A stretch of 64,000 bases of DNA. Source: Deferrisomatales bacterium. Lineage in GTDB: Bacteria; Desulfobacterota; Deferrisomatia; Deferrisomatales; JACRMM01. The position numbers and the translations under genes are program-made. Where the stretch lies: the NCBI GenBank assembly GCA_033551855.1, contig JAWSUI010000010.1, positions 1-64,000 on the forward strand, in the 5' to 3' direction. The notes beneath the pieces were generated by a model that saw only the letters and a list, made by a program, of their open reading frames with translations, was not told the DNA's origin and searched no databases. Numbering within the stretch: position 1 is the stretch's first letter; every line of letters begins with the position of its first letter. Shown in pieces: positions 6,460 through 55,910 of the stretch.

Positions 6460-6665
6460 CCCCGGATGGCCCGCGACCTCGCTCGGCGACCGGAGTCCGG
6501 GAGCCCCTGCGTCTCACCGCGAAATCCGCGGCGGTTCGAAGCGGTGCCCACCAGGGGACCGGGTGCGCCCGGCTTCGCCGATCCCGATCGGTTTGTTCGC
6601 CTCGGTCGATGCGGGTCGCGGTTCCGGGCCTCCCCGCTCCCGCCCAACCCGTGGGCCGCGGTGGC
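6460..6665 (+). repeat. Family A palindromic intergenic repeat, copy A1 (diverged)
   Basis: GGAGTCCGGGAGCCCCTGCGTCTCACCGCGAAATCCGCGGCGGTTCGAAG aligns to copy A2; outer stem GGCCCGCG (6468) / CGTGGGCC (6650). Boundaries approximate. Confidence 0.7.
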
Positions 6666-6703
6666 CTCGGCTCCAGGAGCTCGGCAGCCCCCGGAGGAGG
6701 GGC

Positions 6704-7495
6704 TCACCCTCGCCGGGGTGGATCCGCACCCGGCGCCCGCGACCGGCTCACGACCCGCGGGGCGGGGACGCGACAGGGCAGGGGGAGGGCGCCGGTCAGG
6801 GCCGGCACCCTCACCCCCAGGCGATCCAGGAAGGGAACCGGGGCGAACCGCAGTCCCACCCCCTCGGGATGGGCACCCACGGCCGATGCCACGCGCACCA
6901 CCCGGGCGCGACGGGAAAACGTGCGGTCGTCGCACCACACCCGGACCTGCACCACTTCCCCGGGCTCCACGCCGGCAGGAGCTCCCCGGAGGAACAGGCC
7001 GGTGCGCGAGAGGTTGAACACCGTCCCCCGTAGCCGGATGCCGTCCGCCCGGACCAGCTCCGCGGGTGCACACATCGGGTGGCGGGGCGCCGCGCGCCAC
7101 CAGTGAAGCGTTTGGGCGTGGAAGAACCGGTACACCGAGGGCCGGAGCAGCCACAGGCCCAGGAAGGCCGTGCAGGCGCTCGCCGCCCCGACGGTCCAGC
7201 GGGGCATCGGCGCCGGAAATCGCAGCACGACCCAGTTGTTCCAGAGGGCGACGATGACGAACGCCAGGGCCGCGCCCCATCCCCAGCGGGCCACACGCGT
7301 CACGCCCAGGGCGGCCGTTGCCGAGAGCGCCATGACCAGCTGGTTTTGGGGGGCGAGCTTGGCCCAGATCGCCGTCACCTCGAGGGGGGAGTGTCCGAAG
7401 AGGACCACGGCCTGCAACGGCATCCCCACGACCGGGAGCCAGAGCACCCACCCGAGCACCCGCACCCAGAGGGGCTTCCGGGTCATACCCCTCAC
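6704..7495 (-). CDS. Membrane protein with C-terminal PilZ domain
   Basis: About four TM helices, then RAAPR (RxxxR) and NLSRTG ([D/N]xSxxG); start is GTG at 7495 or ATG at 7486. Confidence 0.75.
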   Translation of the reverse strand: MRGMTRKPLWVRVLGWVLWLPVVGMPLQAVVLFGHSPLEVTAIWAKLAPQNQLVMALSATAALGVTRVARWGWGAALAFVIVALWNNWVVLRFPAPMPRWTVGAASACTAFLGLWLLRPSVYRFFHAQTLHWWRAAPRHPMCAPAELVRADGIRLRGTVFNLSRTGLFLRGAPAGVEPGEVVQVRVWCDDRTFSRRARVVRVASAVGAHPEGVGLRFAPVPFLDRLGVRVPALTGALPLPCRVPAPRVVSRSRAPGADPPRRG

Positions 7496-8625
7496 GTCTC
7501 CTCCGCTGCCGAGGCCTCGCCCGCGGCCCGAAACGCCCCGTAGAAGCTCAGGATCTTGCGCACGTACCGCTTGGCCTCGGTCGCTTCGCCCTGGTCCAGC
7601 CAGTCCCGGCGGTGGTGGCGGAGCCAGTGGAGCGTCCGATTGAGGCCGCTGTTGTAGGCCGCCAGACAGGCCTCGATGAGCACCCGATCTTCGTCCTCAC
7701 CGCCCAGGGACAGGGCGGGCCGATTCCGCTCGTGGAGCAATCGCCCCCGGAGGTGGGAGAGATAGTGGGCGCCCCCCCAAACGCTCTTCACCGGGTCCAG
7801 GCGCCACTCGTTCTCCCCGTTCACGACCCTCGGGATCAGACGGCGCAGGCTGTCTCGGGAGAGCGTCTCGATGCCCGGGTACCGGGGCCAGCCCGGGAAG
7901 GCCGGCGCGATGTCCCTCTCGGCCAGGTGGGTGATCTGCGTCAGCCCCAGGGCCCTCGCCTTGGAGAGGGCATGGGGGTCGAAGCTGCTCTCCTGGGCGA
8001 TGAGGGCCACCAGAAGAACCGGGTTGAGCCCGTAGTGCCGGCCTGCCTCCCACACGACGTCCAGGAGGTCTTCCGCCACCGAGAACGGAGCCGTGGTGGC
8101 CAGCCCCTCCTCCGCCCCCAGGTCCCGCACCTCCGGGAAGGGGTATACGGCGGAGAGCGGTGTGCCGTGGGCCGGCGTGTACTGGACCAGGATGTCGTGG
8201 TCCTCCAGGGGGCGCAGCCGAAGGTGCGGCATCTCCAGGAGGAGCTCCTCGGCGTCGCTCTCACCCCTGGAGCGGTATCCCACCCGGAACTGGAAGGTCG
8301 CCGATTCCGTGACCTCGAGCCCGTTGTAGAACACCCGCAACCGCTCGGCGTCCGGGCGGCCGGGGGCCGAGGGGTCCACGACGGCCACCTTCCAGGTGTA
8401 GGGCCCGTGCACCTGCTGGTAGGAGGGGTCGAACAGGATTCGCGGGCGCTCCTCCGAGGCATCGCCCGGCTGCGGCCCGGCCGAGGGCGGTTCCGCCGGC
8501 CGTGCCTCGGTCGAACGGTCCACGGCCCCGAGGGGCGTGGTGGGGCCCAGGCAGGCGGTCAGGCCCGTCAGGCACCACAGTGCCAGGGCGGCGGCCCTGC
8601 TCCTGGTGGCGGCGTCTTCTTCCAT
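7492..8625 (-). CDS. Lytic transglycosylase (SLT domain), probable lipoprotein
   Basis: IAQESSF catalytic motif, GLTQI, AAYNSG; LTAC lipobox-like. Confidence 0.85.
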   Translation of the reverse strand: MEEDAATRSRAAALALWCLTGLTACLGPTTPLGAVDRSTEARPAEPPSAGPQPGDASEERPRILFDPSYQQVHGPYTWKVAVVDPSAPGRPDAERLRVFYNGLEVTESATFQFRVGYRSRGESDAEELLLEMPHLRLRPLEDHDILVQYTPAHGTPLSAVYPFPEVRDLGAEEGLATTAPFSVAEDLLDVVWEAGRHYGLNPVLLVALIAQESSFDPHALSKARALGLTQITHLAERDIAPAFPGWPRYPGIETLSRDSLRRLIPRVVNGENEWRLDPVKSVWGGAHYLSHLRGRLLHERNRPALSLGGEDEDRVLIEACLAAYNSGLNRTLHWLRHHRRDWLDQGEATEAKRYVRKILSFYGAFRAAGEASAAEET

Positions 8626-8766
8626 GAACGCCTTCGCCCCTTCCCCCGCGTTGCGGTGCGCGTCCCCCCGTCCTCCGCGGACACCACGGCCCTTCCCATT
8701 CCCAGGATCGGCCCGGACGCCGGCGACCTTTAATGCGGTTCCCCCCGGAATCCCTCCCTCGTCTCG

Positions 8767-9930
8767 TCAAAACAGGCCGCCGAGGTCCCCCGCGTAGCCG
8801 GTGAGCTCCACGTAGCCCTCGCAGGTCACCGGGCGGCCGCCGGAGGTCCCCTCCCCCCATACCGCCCCTTCCCAGTACACGACCCCCGTGGACCCGGAAG
8901 TGTCCAGCTCCTGGTCCGGTATCAGAGCCCCAAACACCAACTCGACGCCCGGGGCGATCAGCCGCCACCGGCTCGGGTACCGGGCCCCGCTGCGTGGGCT
9001 CGTCCAACGCTCGCGCACCTCCACCGTGATCTCTGCCAGGGGCAGGGACCTCGAGCTGCCGTCGCGCTCCACCAGGGTTCCCGAGCTGGCCGGCTCGATG
9101 GTCCCGTCCCGGCGACGCAGGAGGTAGACCATGAGATCGCGCCCGTCGGAGAGGTGCAGGCTGAACCAGTCCCAGCCGGCCTGCTCCTCCGAGAGCTGAT
9201 TCGAGCCGAACTCCTGGTCGAACCAGCTCGTGCCCCTCACGAAGAGGGGCTCGGCCCCCGCCCCCAGGACGAGGTGACCCTCCGTCGCCAAGTCGGTAAA
9301 GGACGCGTAGTAGGACGCCTGGCCCGGGGCCGGGCCCTTCCGGCTCAGACCGCCCTTCCCGTGCAGCACCACGGGTTTTCGCGGCACGAGCGCCAGGTCG
9401 AGCCCCATTTCCGCCGTGCGGGCCCGGAGCCGGATCGTCTCGCCCTTCATGACCGCAGTCCAGTCGAGGTTCCAGACGTCCATGCGCCCCTCGAGGGCCC
9501 CGGCCAACCCCGGCCCCGCCCGGTTGAGTCGCTCGGCGTGGCGAAAACGCGGCGGCTCTTCCTCGGTGACGGCGAAGTGCGCCAGGTACGCGTCCCGCAA
9601 GGACCAGGGGTTTTCCGGGTGTGTCGGCTCCCAGCGAACCCCCTGCCGGAAGAAGGTGAGCTGGTAGCCGTAGCGCCGGCCGCCGGCGTCCCGGAGGTTC
9701 CCCGTGAAGTACCACCACTCGGTCCGATAGGCGGGGTGCGCCCCGTGGTCTCGGGGGAAGGACCACTCCCGGGGTCCGACCGCCTGGGCCCACCCAGGAT
9801 CCTCGGCAGAGGTCGGGTGGGCCGCCCACCCCGCACACAGAACCAGGAGGAGAAGACCGACCGAAAGGCCCCCCCGTCGCCTTGTCCGCCGACGGCGGGG
9901 ATGGGGTGCCGAGCGAGGCGACACGCTCAC
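8767..9930 (-). CDS. AttH-like / CrtC-like lipocalin-fold secreted protein
   Basis: FPRDHGAHP..TEWWYFTGNL, GWDWFSL, YWEG, GYVELTGY; GTG start overlaps the permease stop. Confidence 0.85.
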   Translation of the reverse strand: MSVSPRSAPHPRRRRTRRRGGLSVGLLLLVLCAGWAAHPTSAEDPGWAQAVGPREWSFPRDHGAHPAYRTEWWYFTGNLRDAGGRRYGYQLTFFRQGVRWEPTHPENPWSLRDAYLAHFAVTEEEPPRFRHAERLNRAGPGLAGALEGRMDVWNLDWTAVMKGETIRLRARTAEMGLDLALVPRKPVVLHGKGGLSRKGPAPGQASYYASFTDLATEGHLVLGAGAEPLFVRGTSWFDQEFGSNQLSEEQAGWDWFSLHLSDGRDLMVYLLRRRDGTIEPASSGTLVERDGSSRSLPLAEITVEVRERWTSPRSGARYPSRWRLIAPGVELVFGALIPDQELDTSGSTGVVYWEGAVWGEGTSGGRPVTCEGYVELTGYAGDLGGLF

Positions 9931-12389
9931 TCCTCCCGGATCTGGACCTGGGGGAAGGTGCGGAGCACCTTCCACACCGGGTACGCCGCCGCCCCGGCGC
10001 TGGCCAGAAGGGCCGTCGCCAGGGCCGTCGCGAACGGGGTCCCGTCGAAGTGGAAGAAGATCGTCCAGTGAAAGCTCCGGAGGTTGATCACCCGAATGAG
10101 GACGAAGGCGAGCACGGTCCCCAGGCCGACGCTCAGGACGAAGCTCGCGGCCCCCATCCCCAGCCCCTCCAGGAGGGTCATCCCGGCCACCTGGGGGGTG
10201 GAGAAGCCCAGGGCCCGGTAGATGCCGAGCTCCCGTTGCCGCTCCAGGTGAAGGGTCAGCAGGGCCCCGGCGATGCCGAAGAAGGCGACCACCACGGCCA
10301 GGACCCGCATGGAGCGGGTCACGCCGAAGGTGGCGTCGAACACGGCGAGGATGTTGGCGTGGAGCTCCTCCCGGCTGAGCACCGGCAGGCCGAACGCCGC
10401 GGCGCGCCTCCGAACCTCGGCGAGCACTGCACCGGGGTCCGGCGTCCCCGGGTCCAGGAAGACCCCGAGGCTGTCGATGGTCTCGTCCCGAAAGACCCGG
10501 CGGTAGGTTTCGCGGCCCATCATCACGAGACCGTGCTCCGTGGTGTAGTCGTAGAACACCCCGGCCACGGGAAGGTTCACCGGCCCGTCCACGCCGTCCA
10601 GGGTCACCCGGTCCCCCCGCCCCACTCCAAAGCGCCTCCGGAAGCTCTCGGAGACGATGACGGCGTCCTCCTTCACCTCCTCCCAGCTCCGGGGCCCCCC
10701 CTCGACCCACCCGAAGCGGGCATAGGCCTGGAGCACCACCGGGTCGACGGTCGCCAGGTAGATCGGCAGGCCCCGAAACTGGAGGGGGACGTTCCGGTAA
10801 GGGTCGATCCCTCCCACCCCGGGCACCTGCCGGATCTCCTCGTAGGCTTCCGGCGGGACCTCGACCTCGGAGGCACTGGCCACGTACACCTGGCCGGTGA
10901 GCTGGCTGCCCATCCACCAGGTGAGGGTCTCGCGGAAGCTCCCGATCATGAGCCCCAGGCCGACCGACATGGACAGAGCCACGGCGAAGGCGGCCACGGC
11001 CACGGCGGTGCGGCCGAGGTTGCGCCGAATGTTCCGGGCGGCCAGCCTCCCGGGGAGCCCCCCGATCGCGATGGTCACCCGCTCCAGCCCCGGACCCAGG
11101 ACCACGAGGGCCTCGCCCGTGACGAGGCTCGCGGCAACGAGCAGGCCGAAGGCCCCGGCGAACCCCGCGTAGACGTGGGCGGACGCCGCAGGGAAGAGCG
11201 CCAGGCTGAGCGCCGCCACGGCGAGGCCGGCCCAGGCCGCAGACCGGGCCGCGGCCGGGTCCGCGGCGCTGGCCGGCCGCCCCCGGAGCGCCGCCACCGG
11301 GTCGGTACGCAGGAGCTCCCGCAGGGGATAGGAGGCGCCCAGCACGCACGCTCCGCACCCCAAGAGAGCACCGGCGGCGGCGATGGTCCAAGACCACGAC
11401 GGGGGCGTCGGCCGGAGGAAGAAGTAGATGCTGGAGATGGCGTCCCCCACCGGCGCCGTGAGGGCGCGGCTGAGGAGGTAGCCCAGGCCCGCCCCCAGGA
11501 GTCCCCCGAGCCCTCCGAGCAGCAGGAGCTCGGCACCGAAAGCCCGGGCGACCTCGGCCCGGTGCGCCCCCAGGCTGCGCAGGATGCCCGCGTCCCGACG
11601 ACGGCTGACCACTGCGAACATGGCCGTGTTGTAGACGAGGAAGACGCCGACGAAGAGACCGATGAGGGAGAGGGCCTCCAGGTTGAGCCGAAAGGCCCGG
11701 AGCATCTGCTCGAACCCCGCCCGGCGCTGGCCGGTCGACTGCACCCGGAAGCCGGGCTCCCAGCGGGCCCGAAACCCGTCGGCGTCGGAGAGGATCAGGT
11801 CGACCCGGTCCAGGAGGCCTCTCAGTCCGAAGAGCTCCTGGGCGTGTCCGATGTCCAGGAACGCCAAGGGCTCCCCGGCCGGATTCGGGAAGGTGCCGGC
11901 CACCCGAAGGGGTCCCCGGTCGGTGTCGAGCAGCGCCCCCTGACCGACGCCGAGGCGCGAGGCCAGGCCCGCGTCGAGCAGCACCGCCCGCGGATCCTCG
12001 AGGAGGTCGAGTGTCCGGCCCTGGGGCGGGCCGAGATCCGGCCGGAACCGGCGGTCCAGGAAGGGGTCCGCGCCGAGCACCCGGACCCGCTCGCCGCCGG
12101 CCAGGATCACCCGCCGGTCGAGAACCGGCGAAAAGGCTTCCACCCCCGGGTCTGCCGCCAGGCGCCGGAGCTCCCCCTCGTCCAGGGGTCCGGCCGGCCG
12201 GGAGAGGGAGTGGGTCGCGCGGCCCTGGAGGAAATCCACGGCCCGGCCGAAGCTGTCCAGGGCCGCCCGGCCGGTGAGCGCCATCCCCACCGCCGACGCC
12301 ACCCCCACCGCGATCCCCAGGAACTGGAGGACGGACAGGGCACGGCGCCGCAGGAGGTAGCGGAGGAACGCCCGGGTGACCGTGGTCAC
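9927..12389 (-). CDS. FtsX/MacB-like ABC transporter permease (AttF/G-type, duplicated)
   Basis: Two FtsX-like halves (RRRDAGILRSLGA, RQRELGIYRALGF); GTG start overlaps the ATPase stop. Confidence 0.9.
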   Translation of the reverse strand: MTTVTRAFLRYLLRRRALSVLQFLGIAVGVASAVGMALTGRAALDSFGRAVDFLQGRATHSLSRPAGPLDEGELRRLAADPGVEAFSPVLDRRVILAGGERVRVLGADPFLDRRFRPDLGPPQGRTLDLLEDPRAVLLDAGLASRLGVGQGALLDTDRGPLRVAGTFPNPAGEPLAFLDIGHAQELFGLRGLLDRVDLILSDADGFRARWEPGFRVQSTGQRRAGFEQMLRAFRLNLEALSLIGLFVGVFLVYNTAMFAVVSRRRDAGILRSLGAHRAEVARAFGAELLLLGGLGGLLGAGLGYLLSRALTAPVGDAISSIYFFLRPTPPSWSWTIAAAGALLGCGACVLGASYPLRELLRTDPVAALRGRPASAADPAAARSAAWAGLAVAALSLALFPAASAHVYAGFAGAFGLLVAASLVTGEALVVLGPGLERVTIAIGGLPGRLAARNIRRNLGRTAVAVAAFAVALSMSVGLGLMIGSFRETLTWWMGSQLTGQVYVASASEVEVPPEAYEEIRQVPGVGGIDPYRNVPLQFRGLPIYLATVDPVVLQAYARFGWVEGGPRSWEEVKEDAVIVSESFRRRFGVGRGDRVTLDGVDGPVNLPVAGVFYDYTTEHGLVMMGRETYRRVFRDETIDSLGVFLDPGTPDPGAVLAEVRRRAAAFGLPVLSREELHANILAVFDATFGVTRSMRVLAVVVAFFGIAGALLTLHLERQRELGIYRALGFSTPQVAGMTLLEGLGMGAASFVLSVGLGTVLAFVLIRVINLRSFHWTIFFHFDGTPFATALATALLASAGAAAYPVWKVLRTFPQVQIREE

Positions 12390-13087: not shown

Positions 13088-13140
13088 CGTCTGCGATCCC
13101 TCAGCGGCGAGGCCGGGTGCGGGTCAATGCCTCCCGGGGG

Positions 13141-13349
13141 CCTGGATTCACCGGCTGGTTGGCAAGCGGGGTCCGGGAGCCCCTGCGTTTCGCCCCCCAA
13201 TCCGCGGCAATTCGAAGAGAGGTGCCCCAGCAGTCCCCGGTGCCTCGGGCTTCACCCGCTTGCGCCGGCCTCGTCGGGCGGTGGATGCGGTGCGGGGCCA
13301 CACTCCTGGGCTCCCGGACTCCGCCCCACAATCTGGCAGTGGATTCGGG
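13141..13349 (+). repeat. Family A palindromic intergenic repeat, copy A2 (best preserved)
   Basis: Outer stem 13141-13153 / 13337-13349; inner stem GCGGGGTCCGGGAGCCC (13166-13182) / GGGCTCCCGGACTCCGC (13308-13324). Confidence 0.85.
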
Positions 13350-13360
13350 GGGGCTCCGCC

Positions 13361-22336: not shown

Positions 22337-22508
22337 GATCGTCCGTGCTCCTGGGAAGCCGAGGGACTCGCAGTAGGCTCCCGACCCCGAGGCGGGCCGA
22401 GCCCGTGCCCTCGAGGGGACGGGCCCGGGAAGGGCCGCGGGTTGTCGATCGGGACCCCCCCGCAAGCACTGTAACGGCTTGGCGCGGGAACACAAGGTCC
22501 CCCGGGCT

Positions 22509-22718
22509 CCTGGATCCGCCGACTGGCACGTGCTCGGGGTCGGGGAACCCCGCCGCTCCGCCCCGCAATTCGGGCTGCCGGGACGAGGGGTTGGCGAGGA
22601 AGCGGGTGCGCCCGGCTTCCCCCTTTTTTCGGGCCTGGGTCTATCGGTCGAGGCGGTACGGGGCTGCGCTCCACGGCTCCCCGACCCCGCCCGGACGTCT
22701 GGCGGCTGGGACTCCGGG
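22509..22718 (+). repeat. Family A palindromic intergenic repeat, copy A3
   Basis: CGGGGTCGGGGAACC (22535) / GGCTCCCCGACCCCG (22675); shares GAGGCGGTACGGGGCTGC with A4. Confidence 0.75.
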
Positions 22719-25421: not shown

Positions 25422-26924
25422 GTGGGCGAAAGAGGGGTGCGGCAGGGGGAAGGGCGACGACGGGAGGCCGACGCGGGGGAGAGGTTGCCCGCGGGCCTCG
25501 TGACGCCGGAGGAGCTGCGCCTGTTGCTCTCCCCGGCCCCCGGGGCGGAGGGCTTCCCCGTGCTGCTCCTGGGCCCGGGTCCGGACCGGCTCGAGTCCGT
25601 CGCGAGCCTCCTTCGGGGTCGGGGCCTCGTCGTGACCCCGGCCGTCAACTGCTACGCGGCCCTGGACGCCCTCCGCCGCCGGCCCGGCGGCGGTGTCGTC
25701 GCATTCGCCGGCAGCCTGCCCCCCGACGTGGGCTGGTACCTGGACCGCCTGCGTGCGATCGACCCCGGGGTTCGGGTGTGCCTGATCCGCGACGGCTCCC
25801 GCGAACCGCTGCCGGCCGGGGTACCTGCCGTGGGGCCCGACCTCCCCGGCGAGGAGGTCGACCGCCTCGTGAACGCCCTGGGTCCGGGCGCCCCGGGGGA
25901 GGCGGGCACGACGGAAACGGGAGCTGTCCCCGAAAGAACCCAGGGCCCGGACCCCTTCCTGGCGCTCCGGTTCCTTCTCGAAGCGCGGCTCGCGGGGCGC
26001 CCCGTCGAGGAGGGGCTCCTGCGGTGGGCCGCCGAGGACCCGGCGGTCCGGGGGTGGGTCGATCAGGAGGACCGGGGAGGCGAGCTGCGGCTGAGGGCGC
26101 GGGCCGCCGCCGGGGAAGACCGTGCCGGCATGCTCGCCGCTGTTCTGGACCGGTTGGGGGCCCTGGGGGGCCGGGTCCGCGAAGCCACCGCAGAGGGCCC
26201 CTTCGCGCTCTTCCCCCGAGGGGTAGGAGACGAGGGGGCCGTCGCCCTCTGGTTCCGGGAGGCCGCCGGCGCCGAATACCTGGCCCGAGGCCTCCACCTC
26301 CTGGGGCCCTTGCTCGCAGCAGTGCCGGACGGGCGTCCGGGCGGCGATCGGGACAGGCTCCTCTCTCTCCTGGGGTCCAAGATGGCGGCTGCCGAGCGCC
26401 GCGGGACCCGTTTGGGGCTCGTTGTCTTCGAGGGCGGACCGGAGGGGAGCCCGGTGCGCCTCTCCCGGATGGTCCGGGGGCTGCTGCGGGGAGGCGATTG
26501 GGTCGAGCCCCTCGGAACCCGGGTGTACGTGATCCTGGAGGAGCCGGAGCGAGGCGTCTTCCCCATCCTCGCGGCCCGCCTGCAGGAGCTCCCGGGGAGC
26601 GGCCGGCTCCGGGTGGCCGCCCTGGGATGGACACCCCTGGACGGCAGCGCTTCCCGCCTCCTGGAGAGAGCGGAAGAGACCCTGCGGAGCGGCGGCCGGG
26701 GAGAGTGGGTGCCGAGCTGCGAGGGCAGTCCCTCTCCGGGCCCGGATGCTCCGACGGGCCAGAATCCGCCGCCACATCGTGGGGCGGGGTCCGGGAGCCC
26801 CGCAGAGCAGCCCCGTACCGCCTCGGCCGAACCGAAGAGTCCGGCGCAAACGGGTGGATCACGGCGCACCGGGGACGGGTGGGACACCCCTTCGAATGGC
26901 CGCGGATTACGGGGCGAAACGTAG
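25422..26924 (+). CDS. Hypothetical signalling protein: degenerate REC-like N-terminus and degenerate GGDEF-like C-terminus
   Basis: Receiver-like beta/alpha N-terminus; LLRGGDWVEPLGTRVYVIL resembles a decayed GGDEF; the last ~55 codons read through repeat A4. Confidence 0.5.
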   Translation: MGERGVRQGEGRRREADAGERLPAGLVTPEELRLLLSPAPGAEGFPVLLLGPGPDRLESVASLLRGRGLVVTPAVNCYAALDALRRRPGGGVVAFAGSLPPDVGWYLDRLRAIDPGVRVCLIRDGSREPLPAGVPAVGPDLPGEEVDRLVNALGPGAPGEAGTTETGAVPERTQGPDPFLALRFLLEARLAGRPVEEGLLRWAAEDPAVRGWVDQEDRGGELRLRARAAAGEDRAGMLAAVLDRLGALGGRVREATAEGPFALFPRGVGDEGAVALWFREAAGAEYLARGLHLLGPLLAAVPDGRPGGDRDRLLSLLGSKMAAAERRGTRLGLVVFEGGPEGSPVRLSRMVRGLLRGGDWVEPLGTRVYVILEEPERGVFPILAARLQELPGSGRLRVAALGWTPLDGSASRLLERAEETLRSGGRGEWVPSCEGSPSPGPDAPTGQNPPPHRGAGSGSPAEQPRTASAEPKSPAQTGGSRRTGDGWDTPSNGRGLRGET

Positions 26925-26970
26925 GGGCTTCCAGACCCTGCTTGCCGAGCAGGGTCGCGGGAGTCGTGGA
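26757..26970 (-). repeat. Family A palindromic repeat, copy A4 (inverted)
   Basis: Reverse complement aligns to A2 over ~190 bp; inner stem 26784-26801 / 26924-26941. Confidence 0.85.
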
Positions 26971-26983
26971 CGGGCGGGGAGGG

Positions 26984-27011
26984 TTGACGCGGCGCGTGGC
27001 CACGGTACTCT
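26984..27011 (+). promoter_or_regulatory. Putative sigma70 promoter for the P460-family gene
   Basis: TTGACG-16 bp-TACTCT. Confidence 0.45.
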
Positions 27012-34870: not shown

Positions 34871-35118
34871 CGGGCCTCCAGAAGTGGTCCCTGACTTGTA
34901 GCACTCGACCACGCCTGCCGCAACTGCCCAGCAACCCTCGGAATCCACCGTCTGGCGACGAGCGGGCGGCAGGGGGCCCTGGATCCGCGCCCTCCCGAAC
35001 CCCATGAGACTCCGGACCGGTGGTCCCGGGTTCCTCCCAGCGGTTTACCCGACCGGGGGCGCGTGGTACCGTTCCGCGGACGGTGCCGCACCCAACCTCT
35101 CGACCCAAGAGGATACCC

Positions 35119-44959: not shown

Positions 44960-44988
44960 TTTATAACACCGGAGGCGCCGTGAGGCAA
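44960..44988 (-). promoter_or_regulatory. Sigma70 promoter for the FmdB-family gene
   Basis: TTGCCT-17 bp-TATAAA with extended TG. Confidence 0.55.
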
Positions 44989-45024
44989 CCGAAAGGTACG
45001 GTCCGGGCTCCACCATCATATTCT

Positions 45025-45190
45025 CCGCCGGGGCCGGGGAGCCTGGGAGCGCAGCCCCGCACCGCCTCGACCGACCCACCGAGTCCGGGGGCGACGAGTG
45101 AATCCCGGCGCACCGGGGCCTGCGGGGACACCCCGTCGAATCGCGGCAGGCCGCGGTGCGAAGCGGAGGGGCGCCCCGGCGCGGCCCACG
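45025..45190 (-). repeat. Family A palindromic repeat, copy A5 (inverted, diverged)
   Basis: GCAGCCCCGCACCGCCTCGACCGA..GGCGCACCGGGG..GACACCCC.TCGAAT matches A4. Confidence 0.7.
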
Positions 45191-46368
45191 TGCCGGGCGG
45201 TGGGTCCCGGACGGGGGACACGGGCGGGCACCGGCGGGGGAGCATCTCGGGGGAGGGCATCACCCTCGGCGGGAGCCTGATCAACGTCGCGCTGGTGTTG
45301 GTGAAGGGCGCCGCTGGCACCGTGGGGCAAAGTGCCGCCCTCGTCGCCGACGCCCTCCACTCCCTCTCGGACCTGGCCAGCGACCTCGTCGTGCTCCTCG
45401 GGTACCGGGTCGGCCGAAGGCCGCAGGACCCCACCCACCCGTACGGTCACGGGAAGGTGGAGACGCTCTCCACGGCGGTGGTGGGAGCCATCCTCGTGGC
45501 CGTCGGGCTGGGCATGGGCTCCGGGGCGCTGCGGTCCCTGCTCTCCCCCGACCCGCTCCCCCTGCCGGGACGGGTCGCCCTGTGGGCGGCGGCAGCCTCG
45601 CTCCTGGCCAAGGAGATCCTCTACCAGTGGACCGCACGGGTCGCCCGGAGCGAGGACAGTCGGCTCCTCCTGGCCAACGCCTGGCACCACCGCTCCGATG
45701 CCCTCTCCTCCGCGGCTGCGCTCGCCGGGGTGGCGGGGGCCCGTTGGGGCGCCCCCTGGATGGATCCCGCCGGCGCGCTGGTGGTGTGTCTCTTCGTGAT
45801 CAAGGTGGGGTGGGATCTGGGCTGGCAGGCGACCCGGGAGCTGGTGGACACGGCGCCGGACCGGGAGCTGCTCGAGCGCCTGGCCGCGGCGGTTTCCCGG
45901 GTCGAGGGGGTAAGGAGCCACCACGACCTGCGGGCGCGCCGCCTCGGCAAGGACATCCTCGTGGACGTGGACATCGAGGTGGACCCGGAGCTCAGCGTGG
46001 TCCAGGGCCACGACCTGGCCCGGGCCGTGCGCCAGGAGATGCTGCAGGGCGTCAAGGGGGTCCGGGACGCCATGGTCCACGTGGAGCCCGTGGGCGCCCG
46101 GGAAGGGGGCATACACTCCCCCGCCGGCCGCTGGGGCATCCTGGGGGCGGCCGAGGCGATCGCCCGACGCACCCCCGGGGTGCTCGGCTTCCACAAGACC
46201 CGCGTCGTACCCCTGGAGAGCGGCTACCTCCTCAACATCCACATCGAGGTGGCCCCTGCCCTTGCCCTCCAGGAGGCGCACGCCGTGGCGCACCGGCTCG
46301 AAGAAGCCGTACGGGCCCTGCCCGGCATCGTCGACGCCGTGGTCCACGTGGACATCCACGGGGAGTAA
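45190..46368 (+). CDS. Cation diffusion facilitator (FieF-like) with duplicated C-terminal dimerisation domain
   Basis: ADALHSLSD, HPYGHGK.E, NAWHHRSD; two ZT-dimer repeats (VHVEP, VHVD); start uncertain. Confidence 0.88.
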   Translation: MPGGGSRTGDTGGHRRGSISGEGITLGGSLINVALVLVKGAAGTVGQSAALVADALHSLSDLASDLVVLLGYRVGRRPQDPTHPYGHGKVETLSTAVVGAILVAVGLGMGSGALRSLLSPDPLPLPGRVALWAAAASLLAKEILYQWTARVARSEDSRLLLANAWHHRSDALSSAAALAGVAGARWGAPWMDPAGALVVCLFVIKVGWDLGWQATRELVDTAPDRELLERLAAAVSRVEGVRSHHDLRARRLGKDILVDVDIEVDPELSVVQGHDLARAVRQEMLQGVKGVRDAMVHVEPVGAREGGIHSPAGRWGILGAAEAIARRTPGVLGFHKTRVVPLESGYLLNIHIEVAPALALQEAHAVAHRLEEAVRALPGIVDAVVHVDIHGE

Positions 46369-46371: not shown

Positions 46372-46580
46372 GGTTCTTCCGGTAAACGACCGGGTGGGCC
46401 CGCCCACTCCGGCAGACGAGGCCGGACTGCACGGTAGGTGTTCTCCCCCGCCGCGTCCGGAATCCTCGCGACATCGCGACTCCCGAAGCGGCTGCTCCCA
46501 TCGAGCGGCCGTCCGCCTACGTGGTCGGGCCCACCCGATCGTCCCTGGATACGAGGTCCCGGTCATTTCCCGGATGATTC
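46372..46580 (+). mobile_element. 209-bp MITE, ISL3-type ends, copy B1
   Basis: Imperfect terminal inverted repeats GGTTCTTCCGGTAAACGACCGGG / CCCGGTCATTTCCCGGATGATTC; perfect 8-bp TSD AGTAATCG (46364-46371, 46581-46588). Confidence 0.88.
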
Positions 46581-48899: not shown

Positions 48900-49094
48900 A
48901 TGAACGTCCGCATCGACTATGGGCTGTGTATGGGGGACGGAAACTGCCACAAGGTGTGCCCCGAAGTCTTCGACTACGACGACGACAAGCTGCGGGGGGT
49001 GGTCAAGGTCCAGGCCGTGCCGAAGAATCTGGAGGCCAAAGTGCGCCAGGCGGCCGAGGAGTGCAACCCCCAGGCGATCGAGATCGAGGAGTAG
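48900..49094 (+). CDS. Single-cluster ferredoxin
   Basis: CMGDGNC...CPEVF...C..QAI; GAGGAGG RBS. Confidence 0.85.
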   Translation: MNVRIDYGLCMGDGNCHKVCPEVFDYDDDKLRGVVKVQAVPKNLEAKVRQAAEECNPQAIEIEE

Positions 49095-49113
49095 GTCCCC
49101 GGCCCGCGGGGCC

Positions 49114-49797: not shown

Positions 49798-49916
49798 GGG
49801 ACCTCCTCCCGTCGAGGCGGTGTGGAAACCACGGGGGGCGCATGCCGGCAGGCGGAGACCGCCGCGCTGCGAGCGCCCGGGATGGGCCGTCCCTCCATGA
49901 GAACTGCGCCCGGTGC

Positions 49917-49951
49917 CCGGTCAGGAGGGGGGTACCCCGCCCTCCTGCCGG
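49917..49951 (-). terminator. GC hairpin downstream of paaK
   Basis: CCGGTCAGGAGGG...CCCTCCTGCCGG. Confidence 0.35.
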
Positions 49952-49973
49952 GCACGCCCTCGCACCGGCCTGA

Positions 49974-51269
49974 CTACGTGCGCTCGTCGATGACCCGCTT
50001 GGCCTTGCCCTCGCTCCGGGCGATGCTGCCCAGGGGCACGACCTGCACCGGGGCGTTGATCCCGATGACACCGTGGATCCTCGCCGAGACCCGTTTGCCC
50101 AGGTCCAGCAGGCCCTCCTTTCCCTGCCCGTACACCTCCGCCTTGGCCTCGACCTCCACCTTGATGGCGTCCAGATAGCCCTTCTTGGTCACTCGGATCT
50201 GGTACTGGGGCTCCAGCTCCGCAAACTCCATGATGACGGACTCCACTTGGCTGGGGAACACGTTCACCCCGGAGATGATCAGCATGTCGTCGGACCGGCC
50301 CAGGATCTTGTCCATCGTCACCAGGGTCCGGCCGCACGCGCAGGTCTGGCGCTGCAGGCTCGTGATGTCCCGAGTCCGGTAGCGAAGCAGCGGCATGGCG
50401 CGGCGCTGGAGGGCCGTGAAGACGAGCTCTCCCTTTTCCCCCAGGGGCATGGGCTCCAGGGTGGAGGGGTCGACGATCTCCGGGTACGTGTGGTCCTCGT
50501 TGAGGTGCAGCTGTCGTGCCTCGCAGGAGAACCCGACCCCCGGCCCCATCATCTCGGTCAGGCCGTAGGCCTCGTGGGCGGCGATCCCCATGCGCGCCTC
50601 GATCTCCTCGCGCATCTTCACGGTCCACGGCTCGGCGCCGAAGGAGCCCACGCGCAGGGACATCGTGTGCAGGTCGATCCCCATCTGTTCAGCCTTTTCG
50701 GCGATCGTCAGGGCGTAGGTCGGGGTGGACAGGAGGACGGTGCTCCCGAAGTCCTTCATCAGCATGATCTGGCGCTCGGTCATGCCCGATCCCGTGGGGA
50801 GCATGCACGCCCCCAGCTTCTCCACCCCGAGGTAGAAGCCCAGCCCGCCCGTGAAGAGACCCATGCCGTAGGCATTCTGGCAGATGTCCTCCGAGCGGAC
50901 CCCCTGCGCATAGAGCAAGCGGGCCATGCACTCGGCCCACTGGTTCAGGTCGTCGGCGGTGTACGGGCCGGTGATGGGCTTGCCCGTCGTGCCGGAGGAC
51001 GCGTGGATGCGCACGAGCTCTTTCATGGGCGCGGCGCACAGCCCGAAGGGGTAGTTGTCCCGAAGATCGGTCTTCACCGTGAAGGGAAGCCGCGGCAGGT
51101 CGGCCAGGGAGCGGATCTCGCTCGGGTTCACCCCCATCTCGTCGAGCTTGCGTTCGTAAAAGGGGACCCGTTCGTACACCCACTGGACCGTCTCCTGGAG
51201 CTTCCGACCCTGAAACGCTTCCATCTCCTCCGGGGGCATCGTCTCGAACTTCTCGTCCCAGTACTTCAT
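49974..51269 (-). CDS. paaK: Phenylacetate-CoA ligase
   Basis: HASSGTTGKP, GLFTGG, FGAEPW, YGLTE..GPG, RYRTRD, GVNVFPSQ. Confidence 0.93.
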   Translation of the reverse strand: MKYWDEKFETMPPEEMEAFQGRKLQETVQWVYERVPFYERKLDEMGVNPSEIRSLADLPRLPFTVKTDLRDNYPFGLCAAPMKELVRIHASSGTTGKPITGPYTADDLNQWAECMARLLYAQGVRSEDICQNAYGMGLFTGGLGFYLGVEKLGACMLPTGSGMTERQIMLMKDFGSTVLLSTPTYALTIAEKAEQMGIDLHTMSLRVGSFGAEPWTVKMREEIEARMGIAAHEAYGLTEMMGPGVGFSCEARQLHLNEDHTYPEIVDPSTLEPMPLGEKGELVFTALQRRAMPLLRYRTRDITSLQRQTCACGRTLVTMDKILGRSDDMLIISGVNVFPSQVESVIMEFAELEPQYQIRVTKKGYLDAIKVEVEAKAEVYGQGKEGLLDLGKRVSARIHGVIGINAPVQVVPLGSIARSEGKAKRVIDERT

Positions 51270-51464
51270 CGCATCTCCTCCAGACAGACAAGGTTCACGG
51301 GCGCGCGAAATACAAGCAAACGCTGTACCAACTGCCTCCCCCTCGACAGGACCCTTCCTGACTGGCGGCGGGGGAGGGGCCGGTGGGCGGTGGCCGGCGC
51401 GAGCGGTAGATATTGGCCGAAGTGGGGGAAGATTTCAACGACGAGTCTGCCAACACGACGAGTC

Positions 51465-51665
51465 TGGCCCCGGACCCCCCGCCTCCTCGGCAAGCGGGGG
51501 CCGGGGGCCCCGCCGGTCGCCCCGGCCACTGCGGCGATGCGAAGTGGGGGGGCCGAGAAGGCCCCGGTGCGCCGCTTCACCCGTTTGCGTCGGGCTCGGC
51601 GAGTCGGTCGTTGCAGGACGGGGCTGCCCTCCGGGGCTTCCGGCCCCCGCCTCACGAGGCGGGCC
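51465..51665 (+). repeat. Family A palindromic repeat, copy A6, abutting MITE B2
   Basis: GCGGGGGCCGGGGGCCCC (51494) / GGGGCTTCCGGCCCCCGC (51633); shares CCCCGGTGCGCC and TTCACCCGTTTGCG with other copies. Confidence 0.8.
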
Positions 51666-51673
51666 ATATTTTG

Positions 51674-51882
51674 GGTTCATCCGGGAAATGACCGGGTACT
51701 CGTGTCCAGGGACGACCGGGTGGGCCCGACCACGTAGGCGGACGGCCGCTCGACGTGAGCAGCCGCTTCGGGAGTCGCGATGTCGCGAGGATTCCGGACG
51801 CGGCGGGGGAGAACACCTACCGTGCAGCCCGGCCTCGTCTGCCGGAGTGGGCGGGCCCACCCGGTCGTTTACCGGAGGAACC
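51674..51882 (-). mobile_element. 209-bp MITE, ISL3-type ends, copy B2
   Basis: Near-identical reverse complement of B1 and B3; perfect TSD ATATTTTG (51666-51673, 51883-51890). Confidence 0.88.
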
Positions 51883-51889
51883 ATATTTT

Positions 51890-52097
51890 GGCTCTTCCGG
51901 GGAATGACGGGGTGCCGTGCCCGAGGACGGCCGGGTGGGTCCGACGCCGCAGGCGGACGGCCCCTCGATGACCCTATCCCCGTCGGGGCCTTTGGTCCCT
52001 TCGGGTGTTCCGGGGGACCCGAGGGCTCGCACCGTCGGGGCGCCCGGCATCGGCCGCCGGAGTGGGCGGACCCACCCGGTTGTTTCCGGGACGAGGC
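51890..52097 (-). mobile_element. Older diverged relative of MITE family B (B4, ~208 bp)
   Basis: Starts GGCTCTTCCGGGGAATGACGGGG and ends CCCACCCGGTTGTTTCCGGGACGAGGC; shares GCCGGAGTGGGCGG and AGGCGGACGGCC with B2; no clear TSD. Confidence 0.65.
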
Positions 52098-52175
52098 ACC
52101 ATTCTTGGCGGCTCCGGGAGTTGCGGCCAATCGGTGCGGCCGGAGACGGACCCCCCTGCCGGGGGGGCGGCGGGA

Positions 52176-52245
52176 AACCCGATTTTTCGGGTTGACAGGA
52201 GCGGGACATCGTGGAGCATGATGTCCGAGCTGTCCCAATTTGTCC
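52176..52245 (+). promoter_or_regulatory. Promoter with dyad and phased TGTCC repeats (putative autoregulatory operator)
   Basis: TTGACA (52192)-19 bp-CATGAT (52217); dyad GGACATCGTG-gag-CATGATGTCC; TGTCC at 52222, 52231, 52241. Confidence 0.6.
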
Positions 52246-52264
52246 ACAGCAGAAGAGGAACCCC

Positions 52265-52957
52265 ATGGAGCTCTCGGTCCGCGATGCCGCGCGTCTTCTG
52301 GGAGTGTCCGAGAAGACCGTCTACCGGTGGGCCCGCAAGGGAGAGATCCCCCTCACGCGGGTCAACGATCAGTACCGCTTCCACAGGGTGGAGCTCCTGG
52401 AGTGGGCAACCGCGCGCAAGATCCCGGTGTCCCCAGAGATCTACCAGGAGTCCGCGGACGGGCCCTGCCCGGACCTCTCCGATGCCCTGGAGGCGGGGGG
52501 GGTCTTCTACCGAATCGAGGGGACCGACGTTGCCCAGGTGCTCCGGACCGTTGTGGACCACCTGCGATTGCCCGAGGAGGTGGACCGGGAGTACCTCTAC
52601 CAGGTCCTCCTGGCCCGGGAGGAGCTCGGCTCGACGGCCGTGGGCGACGGCATCGCGATCCCCCACCCCCGCAACCCGATCGTGCTCCACGTGCCGCGCC
52701 CCACGGTGACCCTGTGCTTCCTGGAACACCCCGTGGACTTCCAGGCCCTGGACGGCCGGCCGGTACATATCCTCTTCACCCTCGTGAGCCCAACGGTGCG
52801 GGCGCACCTGCACCTGCTCTCACGCCTGGCGTTCTGCCTGCGCGACGGGACCCTGCGGGAGCTCCTGGCGGAGCCTGCAAGCCGTGACGTCCTCCACCAG
52901 GCTTTTCGCGAAGTCGAGAGGGACATCCCGAGGCCCCCGGGAGACACGAGCGGGTGA
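52265..52957 (+). CDS. Excisionase-type HTH fused to PTS EIIA (PtsN-like) regulator
   Basis: SVRDAARLLGVSEKTVYRWARKGEIP; RE..GSTAVGDGIAIPHPR, ALDGRPV. Confidence 0.9.
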   Translation: MELSVRDAARLLGVSEKTVYRWARKGEIPLTRVNDQYRFHRVELLEWATARKIPVSPEIYQESADGPCPDLSDALEAGGVFYRIEGTDVAQVLRTVVDHLRLPEEVDREYLYQVLLAREELGSTAVGDGIAIPHPRNPIVLHVPRPTVTLCFLEHPVDFQALDGRPVHILFTLVSPTVRAHLHLLSRLAFCLRDGTLRELLAEPASRDVLHQAFREVERDIPRPPGDTSG

Positions 52958-53299
52958 CCCCCCTCCTGTCCGGGAGAAACCCGGTGAGCGCCGTTTACGG
53001 CGACGTGCCGCTGCTCGACCCGGACGCGTTCGCCCAGGCGCTCTCCGACCGGCTGGCCGGCGGGGCTCTTCGGGTTCTTCCTGCTCGCGTCCTTCGCGGG
53101 CATGGGGGCCACCGTCCTAGCGGTGGCCCAGGGGCCGCCCTCCCCCGCCGCGAGGACCACCGCCTACCGCGACGGGCTCCTCACCGGGGTACCTTTGGTT
53201 CTCTTCTTCGGGCTCCTCCTGCTGCTCGGCGTCTACCTGCCCGCGCCCCTCGGAGAACTGCTGCGGCAGGCTGCGGCGATGGTGGAGGGGAGTGGTTAG
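52954..53299 (+). pseudogene. Deletion relic of a hydrogenase-4/Ehr-type operon
   Basis: Coupled start (GTGA) with a short soluble N-terminus, then an out-of-frame switch near 53050 to GLFGFFLLASFAGMGATVLAVAQG..LLLLLGVYLPAPL..LLRQAA, which resembles a HyfF C-terminus. Confidence 0.55.
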
Positions 53300-55607
53300 C
53301 GCCTTCGGAGGGCAGGTTCGGCGGGAGCAGGGCCTCCGGGCTACCCGTCGACACGAGCTCCCCCACGAAGAGGCTCGCGTTCTTGACGAAGAAGAAGGTG
53401 GGCAGGCCGTCGGCCAGCTCCGAAAGCCGCACGGCGTAGTCCTCTTCCTGCCCCTCCTCGGGGGTCGCGAGGCCCAGCAGGACCGCATCCGCTTCTCGGC
53501 TCTCGGCCTGGATCACCTCTCGGATGCTCGTGTCCGGGGGCTTCACGAGCACCTCGACTTGGGCGCTGATGCGCAGCGCGGGGAGCAAGTGGTCGAGGAT
53601 GTGCTCGGTCTTCTCCTTCATCAGGGGATTCGAGGCGATGCTCAGCACCCGGATGTGCGCCCCCCGCCACTCCCGGTTGCGCGTGAGGAGATAGGCCAGC
53701 AGGAGCATCAGGTCGCCGTTGCGCTCGAGCCCCCCCCACCAGACGTGGACCGACCGGGGACGGGCGTTGCGGCCACGGTCCATGGAGGGGGAGACCCGGC
53801 CGATGATCAGGGACTTGCGCAGCCGCTCCAGACGACGCGTGACCCGCAGGAGCTGAGCTAGGCGCTCGGGGTCCCCGGGCCACCCCAGGAGGACGGTGTT
53901 GGGCTCCAGCGCCGCCATACCGTTGGCCTGCGCAACCCCTACGATCCCCTGCTCGACGTTGGGCACGACGTCCACCTCGCCGAAGGCGGTGATCCCCTCC
54001 CGGCGAAACAGGGCCTCGATCTGCTCCTTCCTCACGAGGGGGTCCTCCTCCAGTGCCAGGAGGTCGCCCTCCACCAGCTCACAGACGGTCACGACGCCCC
54101 GGTCCTGGCTGAACCAGTCGCCGAAACGGACCAGGGCCAGGCGCCGCTCCACGTTCTCGACGAAGACGAGAACGTGAGGGCGCCAGTTGCGGGCGCTCAG
54201 GGGCCGGCGGGAGAGCTTGACCAAGGCCCAGCGGATGAGGGCCTCGTACACGCCCCGGCGCACGTCGCCCCAGTCGGCCTTGCGCTCCTTGCGTTGGAGC
54301 GCGACGTACAGGGCGAGCACGACCAATACCGCCGCGGCGCTGGCCCACGGCCGGATGAGCACCATGGCCCCGAAGCATCCCAGGGCCCCCGCGAGGCACA
54401 CCGGCCACGGCACCGAGAGGGTAGGCCTCCAGGAGGGGTCGCCCGAGAGGCCCTCCAGAGCCGCCACCAGGTTGAGCATCCCGTAGACGGTGAGGAAGAA
54501 GAGGGTGACCACCGAGGCGACGGTATTGAGGTCTCCCAGGAAAACCGCCCCCAGGGCGATGGCCAGGGTGACGGCCAGCCCCAGCACGGGCTCGCCCCCC
54601 TCCTCCGCGACCGCGGCAAACCGCCGGGGAGCGAGGTGGTCCCGGGCGAGCGCCTGCAGGGTTCGGGGCGCGCCCAGGATCGAACCGACAGCCGAGGAGA
54701 AGATGGCCCCCCAGAGGCCCGGAAGGACGAACAACGCCCCGAGGGGCGCGATCCGGGTCCAGACGAGGGGGTCGGACCGAAGAGTCTCGGCATCGGCCCC
54801 CAATGTCAGGAGGACCGGGATCGTCAGGTACAGGGCGAACCCCGTGAGGGTGGCCGCCAAGGCGCCCCGGGGAATGCTCCGCTGGGGGTCCTTCAGATCG
54901 CCGGAGAGGCCGAGGCCGGCCATGATTCCCGTGACCGCCGGGAAGAACACGGCGAAGACGACCCAGAACCCCACCTCGCCCGAGCTCCCGGCGACCCTCG
55001 GACCGGGGGGGCCGCCGCCGAAGAGCGCCCCCAACACGAGGGCCAGCAACGACAAGGCGATGAGCCCCATGATCGGAAGCTGGCTTCGCAGGGCCGCGCC
55101 GGCGCCCCGGTAGGCCAAGGCGGCCACCCCGAGCACGATGACCATGGCCGCCGCCGGCACCGGCACCCCGGGCCAGACGAAGCGCAGCGACTCTGCGAGG
55201 CCGTAGGAATACAGCGTAACCGAGAGGGCCTGGGCGAGGAACAGCGGCAGGCCGATCGCCCCCCCGATCTCGGGCCCGAGACTCCGGGAGATGATGTAGT
55301 ACGCTCCCCCCGCACCCAGGCGGGTGTTGGTGGCCACCGCCGAGAGGGACAGGGTGGTGATGAGGGTGATGCCGTTGGCCAAACACACGATGAGCAGGGC
55401 CTTGCCCAGCCCGGCGTGCCCCACCACCCACCCGAACCGCAGGTACATGATGACGCCCAGGATGGTGAGGACCGTGGGTGTGAAGACCCCGAGGAAGGTC
55501 CCGAGCTGGGGGCCCTGGCGTCGGGACACGCCGGCGGCCCCTTCCCCCATGAGTCGGCGGGTCCAGGAGAGCACGCGGAGCAGGAGGGGCGGGATCTGGG
55601 GAACCAT
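53181..55607 (-). CDS. Cation-chloride cotransporter (SLC12/CCC, APC superfamily)
   Basis: GVFTPTVLTILGVIMYLR, GGAYYIISRSLG, FFPAVTG, RNWRPH, VWWGG..NGDLM; start may be 55550. Confidence 0.9.
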   Translation of the reverse strand: MVPQIPPLLLRVLSWTRRLMGEGAAGVSRRQGPQLGTFLGVFTPTVLTILGVIMYLRFGWVVGHAGLGKALLIVCLANGITLITTLSLSAVATNTRLGAGGAYYIISRSLGPEIGGAIGLPLFLAQALSVTLYSYGLAESLRFVWPGVPVPAAAMVIVLGVAALAYRGAGAALRSQLPIMGLIALSLLALVLGALFGGGPPGPRVAGSSGEVGFWVVFAVFFPAVTGIMAGLGLSGDLKDPQRSIPRGALAATLTGFALYLTIPVLLTLGADAETLRSDPLVWTRIAPLGALFVLPGLWGAIFSSAVGSILGAPRTLQALARDHLAPRRFAAVAEEGGEPVLGLAVTLAIALGAVFLGDLNTVASVVTLFFLTVYGMLNLVAALEGLSGDPSWRPTLSVPWPVCLAGALGCFGAMVLIRPWASAAAVLVVLALYVALQRKERKADWGDVRRGVYEALIRWALVKLSRRPLSARNWRPHVLVFVENVERRLALVRFGDWFSQDRGVVTVCELVEGDLLALEEDPLVRKEQIEALFRREGITAFGEVDVVPNVEQGIVGVAQANGMAALEPNTVLLGWPGDPERLAQLLRVTRRLERLRKSLIIGRVSPSMDRGRNARPRSVHVWWGGLERNGDLMLLLAYLLTRNREWRGAHIRVLSIASNPLMKEKTEHILDHLLPALRISAQVEVLVKPPDTSIREVIQAESREADAVLLGLATPEEGQEEDYAVRLSELADGLPTFFFVKNASLFVGELVSTGSPEALLPPNLPSEGANHSPPPSPQPAAAVLRGARAGRRRAAGGARRREPKVPR

Positions 55608-55819
55608 GGGCGCTCCGGGGTCGGGGGCGGCCCCGAAGGGACGCGGCGACGGCGGGGGGGGGCTTCCCGCGCCCGGGTCTGCTGCGGCCGCGCGAGCATA
55701 GCATGCCGCCCCGGGGCTGCCCAACCGGGCCGGCCGCAACAGCCCGGCCGCCGCGAGGCCTATCACTACAGCGAGCGATCGGTTCTCCGCGTGCGTTCGG
55801 CGCAAAGCCTTCCCTCCGA

Positions 55820-55910
55820 AGAGCAGCCCCGTACCGCATCGACCGACCCGCCCCGAATCCGGTGCACCGGGGCCTGCCAGGACACCCCCCTCGAATTGCC
55901 GCGGCCTTTC
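55820..55910 (-). repeat. Family A repeat, partial copy A7
   Basis: GAGCAGCCCCGTACCGCATCGACCGA..GCACCGGGGCCTGCCAGGACACCCCCCTCGAATTGCCGCGG matches the A4/A5 core with an internal deletion. Confidence 0.7.

Follow-up and report, generated by a model that had tools for sequence, protein, structure and literature searches.

The window analysed here, 64,000 nucleotides of a Deferrisomatales bacterium (GenBank assembly GCA_033551855.1, contig JAWSUI010000010.1, positions 1 to 64,000), holds seven copies (A1 to A7) of an intergenic repeat, family A, that an earlier note on the same DNA had described as a rod-shaped element with a fixed polarity to gene starts. We identified family A as a non-autonomous, DDE-type MITE (short for miniature inverted-repeat transposable element) with CC…GG inverted ends and a target-site duplication (TSD) of 4-5 bp. 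One of its ends, the docking end, sits 13-14 bp upstream of a predicted -35 box of a host sigma70 promoter. The MITE itself, including the rod, is ordinary; what stands out is the promoter docking by IS1380-type elements. We are fairly confident of the whole explanation, namely a MITE with IS1380 ends and an oriented docking at 9 bp, in which the transposase likely uses promoter-bound RNA polymerase.

Family A: copies, ends and empty sites

The source genome (G000) is a draft of 4.24 Mb with 70% GC, in 132 contigs. An iterated profile built from genome-wide copies found 226 copies of family A, 134 of them near full length, and none in the reversed genome that served as control. All seven window copies were recovered and aligned, with scores of 43-171 bits. 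The 226 copies make up 208 loci (193 single, 12 double and 3 triple), only three of which lie inside genes as called by our own gene caller, from which the gene context is taken throughout. Conservation has sharp edges, with CC at one end and GG at the other, and 52 of the 95 two-ended copies are 208 bp long. Two inverted repeats, CCnGGATCCACC and GGTGGATTCnGG, form the ends; the outer stem of the earlier note therefore exists, but it is simply this terminal inverted repeat (TIR).

The same note had found no evident TSD, which does not hold. Exact duplications of 4 bp flank 36 of the 95 two-ended copies and exact duplications of 5 bp another 12 (48/95 together), compared to a mean of 1.2 and to 0.4, respectively, when flanks were shuffled between copies. 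In the window, GGGG stands on both sides of A2 and ACGGG on both sides of A4, and the flanks of A5 match at 4 of 5 TSD bases. Duplications of 8-9 bp were seen in none of the 95 family A copies and in none of 100 autonomous loci. An Rfam scan of the window gave nothing at gathering score, only one chance match to A2 (E 0.76), in line with the earlier statement that the repeat matches no recognised family; its ends, however, belong to IS1380-family insertion sequences (ISs).

Relatives provided the empty sites. The A2 site is empty in two genomes of the same genus, G001 and G002, and A7 is absent at the matching sites of both. Among 16 matching regions from relatives a single one carried a family A copy, these relatives being too diverged for an exact single-target readout, and the orthologous gaps of A3 were rearranged and gave no information on an empty site. 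We base the assignment as a MITE on the TIRs and TSDs together with these empty sites, which also bear out the suspicion that the element was once mobile. The empty A5 site of G001 and the empty A6 site of G002 both retain the promoter, and for this reason we regard the promoter at the docking end as the host's own. Among copies from G001, G002 and G005, taken as the best 35 matches, TTG occurs at positions 13-16 in the docking flanks of 11/18, 10/11 and 2/3, respectively, and at the other end in 1/19, 2/10 and 0/3. Family A also lies at seemingly the same promoters in two species, L236 (G001) with G000:C17:20337 and L254 (G002) with G000:C17:27650; these are either old shared insertions or repeated hits.

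Promoter spacing and the probable autonomous partner

Divergent gaps hold 91 of the loci, co-directional gaps 88 and convergent gaps 6, with 3 more inside genes and 20 at contig ends. The same end is turned toward the gene start in 78 of the 88 co-directional gaps, so that the polarity noted in the window extends to the whole genome, except that A5 has its fixed-distance promoter at the other end. A gene start follows 139 of 152 docking ends. Convergent gaps, from which copies had been said to be absent, are nearly avoided but hold six loci (6/185 classified loci vs 267/2076 background gaps). Oriented insertion beside promoters accounts for the polarity, whose cause lies outside the element.

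We read the sequence outward from 151 non-tandem docking ends, setting aside 17 tandem flanks and one short one. A TTGACA with at most one mismatch begins at position 14 in 33 of them and at position 15 in 18, compared to 3/109 for both positions at the other end and to a random intergenic rate of 0.8% over positions 13-16. The trinucleotide TTG alone is found at 13-16 in 96 of 150 MITE docking flanks, and a -10-like TANNNT at 36-39 in 72 of 150, vs 7/109 at the other end and 0.9% in random intergenic DNA. The 13-14 bases between the docking end and the -35 box are variable in sequence. When copies were divided by score into terciles, as a test of young against old, either box was present in 39, 34 and 43 of 50; young and old MITE copies are equally linked to promoters.

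The length of the TSD sets the spacing. Among copies with a -35 box at 14 or 15, to which this test was restricted, MITEs with a 4-bp TSD have it at 14 in 13 cases and at 15 in 2, and those with a 5-bp TSD in 0 and 5 (p = 0.001). For the autonomous elements introduced below the corresponding counts are 35 vs 1 and 0 vs 7 (p = 2e-7). Position 14 with a 4-bp TSD and position 15 with a 5-bp TSD leave 9 bp between the TSD and the -35 box either way, and we hold it very likely that the spacing is set at insertion and not by selection alone. Tandem copies are spaced 4-5 bp apart in 7 of the 8 cases found, as expected if insertion recurs at one site with an unchanged distance. Moreover, 20 of 54 MITE copies without TTG at 13-16 keep a correctly placed -10 (at most 5/54 in shifted windows), suggesting the promoter complex as a whole as the landmark.

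The enzyme probably behind this spacing can be traced through the ends. In G002, the 3' part of an IS1380 transposase gene ends in the docking TIR of the MITE, 13 bp before TTGACG-17-TAAATT. Beside this fragment (L025 1973-2160), the promoter is followed by a putative thiamine pyrophosphate (TPP) riboswitch. The full-length homologues are PF13701 proteins of 504 aa, of which P0002 is 91% identical to the fragment, and the NCBIfam IS1380 model (NF033539) gives 205.9 and 234.9 bits at a cut-off of 180. Members of the IS1380 family, such as ISEcp1 and ISPme1, have TIRs that start with CC, a TSD of 4-5 bp and one DDE transposase gene in a total of about 1.6-2 kb. The probable autonomous partner has the same traits: TIRs with CC, a TSD of 4-5 bp, a length of 1.78-2.05 kb and a score that passes NF033539. 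The model of the transposase (pLDDT 78) is nearest to the Tn5 and piggyBac transposases; as to a Mutator-like transposase, ISCth4 (IS256 family) reached only E = 0.02. The nearest plasmid records are only 23-28% identical.

We sampled 154 autonomous loci, 80 of 244 confirmed metagenome stretches and 74 from the best 80 of at least 630 genome stretches, the latter mostly from Dehalococcoidia and hence not independent. These elements are about 1.86 kb long (1.78-2.05 kb) and have the TIR of the MITE in common, CCNNRATYCACCRYC. Their TSD is 4 bp in 51/100 and 5 bp in 7/100. For the metagenome loci, 27 of 50 3' flanks have the -35 box at 14/15, compared to 3 of 42 5' flanks, and the docking end of the MITE corresponds to the 3' end of the IS; the genome loci, whose TIRs are nearly symmetric, have the box at both ends (14/71 and 21/68). 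TTG at 13-16 on either side marks 72 of 86 autonomous elements, and 7 of 86 have tandem neighbours. As a separate observation, in L117, L129, L147, L150, L160, L161 and L164, all from Dehalococcoidia, autonomous IS1380 copies lie head to tail, 4-9 bp apart. Given the shared TIR and TSD, family A was in all likelihood mobilised in trans by this IS1380 branch.

In a quick tree (FastTree only, with L108 and L112 left out) the docking clade and four neighbours form one branch with 98% local support; TTGA occurs at 14-16 in three of these neighbours, a -10 in the other one. Among 12 IS1380 elements outside the branch, a small sample of single copies, TTG stands at 14 in two and both boxes in none. 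The clade also has protein features of its own. A clade-specific Arg-rich helix at about residues 100-115 of P0002 is a candidate targeting contact in the model, and a clade-specific insertion carries a conserved Q-x-x-L-P-F at about 355-360, which is reminiscent of a beta-clamp-binding motif. Within G000, the three DDE_Tnp_1 loci were ruled out as partners of the MITE, as they have other ends or no matching TIR. Three ISs of this genome, L002 722-2680 (G000:C81), L001 1423-2680 (G000:C24) and L003 (G000:C15), have inverted ends of their own; one encodes a 554-aa transposase, one a 400-aa transposase, and one lies at a contig end.

Proposed mechanism, alternatives and precedents

According to the mechanism we propose, the IS1380 transposase would act in trans on the 208-bp MITE, dock on promoter-bound RNA polymerase and cut at a set distance, which would place the TSD 9 bp upstream of the sigma70 -35 box and fix the orientation of the element. 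The landmark would be the polymerase holoenzyme, probably sigma region 4, and the cut would be centred near -46, beside that region, as textbook promoter geometry has it. At a position just upstream of the -35 box, insertions would leave genes and promoters intact, so that copies could accumulate and, where one site is hit repeatedly, line up head to tail. We have considerable confidence that the holoenzyme, through a predicted contact, and not DNA alone is the landmark.

A number of observations weigh against this reading. Nearly half of the two-ended copies (47/95) are without an exact TSD of 4 or 5 bp, neither box is present in 34 of 150 docking flanks, and 10 of the 88 co-directional loci are reversed, in addition to the six loci in convergent gaps and the three in called genes. 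A copy stands at 14-15 on only 25 of 233 strong promoter-like sites, and the promoters are predicted from consensus matches. The -10-only signal is weak in young autonomous elements (4/14, vs 0-3 in shifted windows), and in old MITE copies the -35 box may have decayed after insertion. Regarding the partner, a search for the IS1380 transposase (PF13701) gave no match in draft G000 and only the fragment in G002. The interior of the MITE matched the ends of the autonomous loci at best with E 0.75, and nothing beyond the TIR is shared with the sampled ISs; the direct parent is thus missing.

The same MITE and the same ruler would result if the transposase read the -35 sequence, or the shape of promoter DNA, without any polymerase. 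TTG at 13-16 is indeed the strongest signal in both MITE flanks (96/150) and autonomous elements (72/86), some sites have a -35 box without a good -10 (A2; 44/96), and the -10-only count in young elements, 4/14, is little above the 0-3 of shifted windows. Nonetheless, a -10 at the right spacing is kept by 20 of the 54 copies that lack TTG, and a motif of three to six bases is ubiquitous, yet only 3 of 208 loci fall within called genes and 139 of 152 docking ends have a gene start beyond them; we consider direct reading of DNA unlikely. Alternatively, insertion could be loose, with selection retaining only those copies just upstream of promoters, as harmless passengers or as insulators or activators. 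Copies in genes must be purged, A5 was retained in two species, and the rod is more conserved than the loops (6.1 vs 9.0 differences per column), all of which would suit selection. It leaves unexplained, on the other hand, why the -35 box shifts by one base with the length of the TSD, why the peak is two bases wide, why young and old copies are equally linked to promoters (39, 34 and 43 of 50), why near-identical autonomous copies of another phylum have the identical spacing, and why arrays are spaced by one TSD. Selection as the sole cause seems to us improbable.

The earlier note had also entertained an RNA, either cis-regulatory or a leader, that recurs through the genome; selection would then act on its structure in each copy. 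The rod on which this idea draws is real: A2 folds with z = -4.2, and 0 of 200 shuffles were equally stable. Over the six full window copies, pairing extends to 88% of cells vs 35-49% in slid controls, a comparison tilted in favour of the structure because it was derived from these very sequences. Both partners have changed in 7 of the 36 pairs. The compensatory pairs cited at the time are among the columns of the six-copy alignment (36/184, U-A vs G-C/C-G; 38/182, C-G vs G-C). Across 90 copies, where default alifold gave no structure for the + strand and the ribosum alifold structure was used instead, conservation is highest in the inner stems, and the pairs with the highest mutual information are mostly non-pairing markers of subfamilies. 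Compensatory changes are confined mainly to columns 30/179, 32/177, 34/175, 48/161 and 21/186, which switch together between subfamilies. Independent events were bounded by pair comparisons only: 45 disjoint pairs of copies show 93 two-sided changes vs 75 in permutations (3/500), a modest excess. The claimed covariation therefore stands as far as the pairs go, but it is concentrated at a few columns that define subfamilies.

In favour of an RNA are the stable fold and its compensatory pairs, the overall excess of changes on both sides, the preponderance of G-U over A-C when all pairs are counted (184 vs 131, p = 0.003) and the better fold of the + strand in 60 of 90 copies. In contrast, the two main stems show no excess of G-U over A-C (54 vs 65, p = 0.36), only 20 two-sided changes keep a Watson-Crick pair vs 666 one-sided changes, and the compensatory columns switch jointly. 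The element lies upstream of the predicted -35 box and hence outside the transcript of that promoter, no Rfam family matches, and no terminator-like site was seen at A4. A leader RNA is very improbable to us, though family A may play a part as RNA within read-through transcripts. Both the rod and the compensatory pairs mostly mark separate subfamilies, and the rod is kept in lineages that multiplied and decays in resident copies; our guess is that its retention reflects a DNA-level need in transposition or correction from arm to arm. The least probable alternative, which we can hardly credit, is an element of the REP/REPIN, RPE or IS110 type, as had also been suggested, moved by an HUH or DEDD enzyme. 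Its palindromic rod, high copy number and tandem arrays would agree with this. TIRs with a variable duplication of 4-5 bp are hallmarks of DDE enzymes, REPs tend to lie 3' of genes and in convergent gaps, the latter being avoided by family A, and the ends of family A are those of IS1380-family elements.

Docking on promoter-bound polymerase, the reading we prefer, has a precedent. The Mutator-like elements TnGBS, ISLre2 and ISKra4 insert in an oriented manner 15-17 bp upstream of the sigmaA -35 box, with a TSD of 8-9 bp, according to the main text of PMC3942029, where a contact with the polymerase is proposed for them and left unproven (Guerillot et al. 2014, PMC3942029). Of the systems compared, the TnGBS integrative and conjugative elements, ISLre2 (p-MULT 3) and ISKra4 (p-MULT 4) come closest, fixed-distance promoter targeting being common to them and to family A. 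In both, the -35 box would follow the centre of the TSD at a distance of roughly one helical turn, and insertion in both orientations, as in our Dehalococcoidia-dominated IS1380 loci, is likewise described for the elements of that main text. They differ in the transposase (Mutator-like vs an IS1380 enzyme with a Tn5-like fold), the TSD (8-9 bp vs 4-5 bp) and the distance (15-17 bp vs 13-14 bp). The promoter-docking element works like p-MULT 3/4 but is not a member of that group. The words IS1380 and MITE are absent from the main text of PMC3942029, supplements aside, and we found no report of promoter targeting by IS1380 elements in a literature search that lay outside ISfinder, TnPedia, subscription reviews and those supplements. 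Within the literature searched, fixed-distance promoter targeting seems so far to be in print only for the unrelated TnGBS/ISLre2/ISKra4 group.

Known IS1380 members are promoter donors that capture adjacent genes with an outward promoter of their own, as described in the relevant part of PMC9330008, whereas family A and the docking branch sit at host promoters. The prokaryotic MITEs Correia, QMITE and MITEAba12, as presented in the main text of the review PMC10969869, are also short, non-coding, intergenic and moved in trans, with TIRs, TSDs and a stable hairpin; family A differs from them in being GC-rich and in its fixed spacing to the host -35 box. That main text discusses promoters carried inside MITEs and is without mention of IS1380. 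A more distant analogy, cited in the main text of PMC3942029, is yeast Ty3, for which start sites of RNA polymerase III are the landmark, so that transcription-initiation machinery guides both. Ty3 is a eukaryotic retrotransposon with a proven protein tether, while family A is a bacterial DNA transposon whose tether would be of a predicted kind.

We lean slightly towards the view that an IS1380 branch, spread across several phyla, independently evolved a tether to sigma70 polymerase and inserts at a distance of exactly 9 bp to the -35 box. If so, Ty3-like targeting would have arisen a second time in bacteria, in an enzyme of the Tn5 fold, with a 200-copy MITE as its genomic footprint, and the MITE would amount to a natural map of promoters and a compact safe-landing vector. 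It would also give a second, unrelated transposase family of base-pair precision, made up of a single 504-aa enzyme and a 208-bp cargo, and with parts this small the question of polymerase as a landmark becomes directly testable. Possible uses are a gene-sparing integration tool and the reading of promoter positions from genomes of uncultured bacteria.

Window copies and family B

The promoter-like sites beside the window copies are consensus matches that carry statistical weight as a set, not each of them being secure by itself. A1 (6461..6668, + strand) belongs to a diverged subfamily and its far end is degraded, which makes that end approximate (profile match 6482-6648, 102 bits); its left TIR is CCCGGATGG at 6461. 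Outside its docking end, on the - strand, a putative promoter at 6417..6446 has a weak -35, TGGCCC, at outward position 15, an 18-bp spacer and the -10 TATGAT. A2 (13141..13349, +) is full length with both TIRs. Its GGGG duplication (13137-13140 and 13350-13353) is of low complexity and backed by the statistics of the family, and the -35-like TTGACC at 13122..13127 (- strand) is at outward position 14, with no good -10. A3 (22509..22716, +) represents the CACGTGC subfamily and again has a degraded far end with an approximate limit (profile match 22512-22705, 120 bits); the promoter-like TTGTGT-16-TACAGT at 22468..22495 (- strand) has its -35 at position 14.

A4 (26759..26969, - strand) is full length, with the 5-bp TSD ACGGG at 26754-26758 and 26970-26974. 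The promoter-like TTGACG-16-TACTCT at 26984..27011 (+) has its -35 at outward position 15, the sum of the 5-bp TSD and 9 bp. In G002, TTGACG also precedes the gene, there without the element; a strict promoter scanner found no promoter at A4. A5 (45003..45210, -) is in the minor orientation, with its promoter at the other end, and is present in G002 and absent in G001. The promoter-like TTGCCT-17-TATAAA of an FmdB-family gene (44960..44988, - strand, -35 at outward position 15) is the one kept at the empty G001 site.

A6 (51469..51665, +) has an approximate far end, which is replaced or interrupted by two family B elements, and the entire block, MITE and family B elements together, is absent in G002. 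The promoter-like TTGAAA-17-CAATAT (51410..51453, -) is at outward position 31, displaced by a tandem duplication of about 15 bp (51433-51468) that left a second TTG at position 16; G002 is without this duplication. A7 (55816..55904, -) is a fragment with only the core and both ends lost, covering profile positions 59-164 at 43 bits. Directly after it, at 55907..55936 (+), lies the promoter-like TTTCCT-18-TAAGAT before a DNA polymerase III chi-like gene, whose TAAGAT is conserved in G001 and G002. A degraded remnant of family A at 34938..34990, to which no strand was assigned and which the earlier note had overlooked, lies in a divergent gap and is TIR-like at both ends, with a TIR matrix match at 34938 and a score below the threshold of the profile.

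Family B is a separate MITE of about 208 bp, present in the window at 46373-46577, ~51675-51881, ~51890-52094 and 61238-61443. It has the ends GGWTCATCCGG and CCGGAAGAACC, and its AT-rich duplications of 7-8 bp were judged by eye. The notion that family B shares the TIR of family A was rejected, as B inserts into A. Several family B copies are inserted inside family A copies near the far end, and 89 long matches to family B were found throughout G000.

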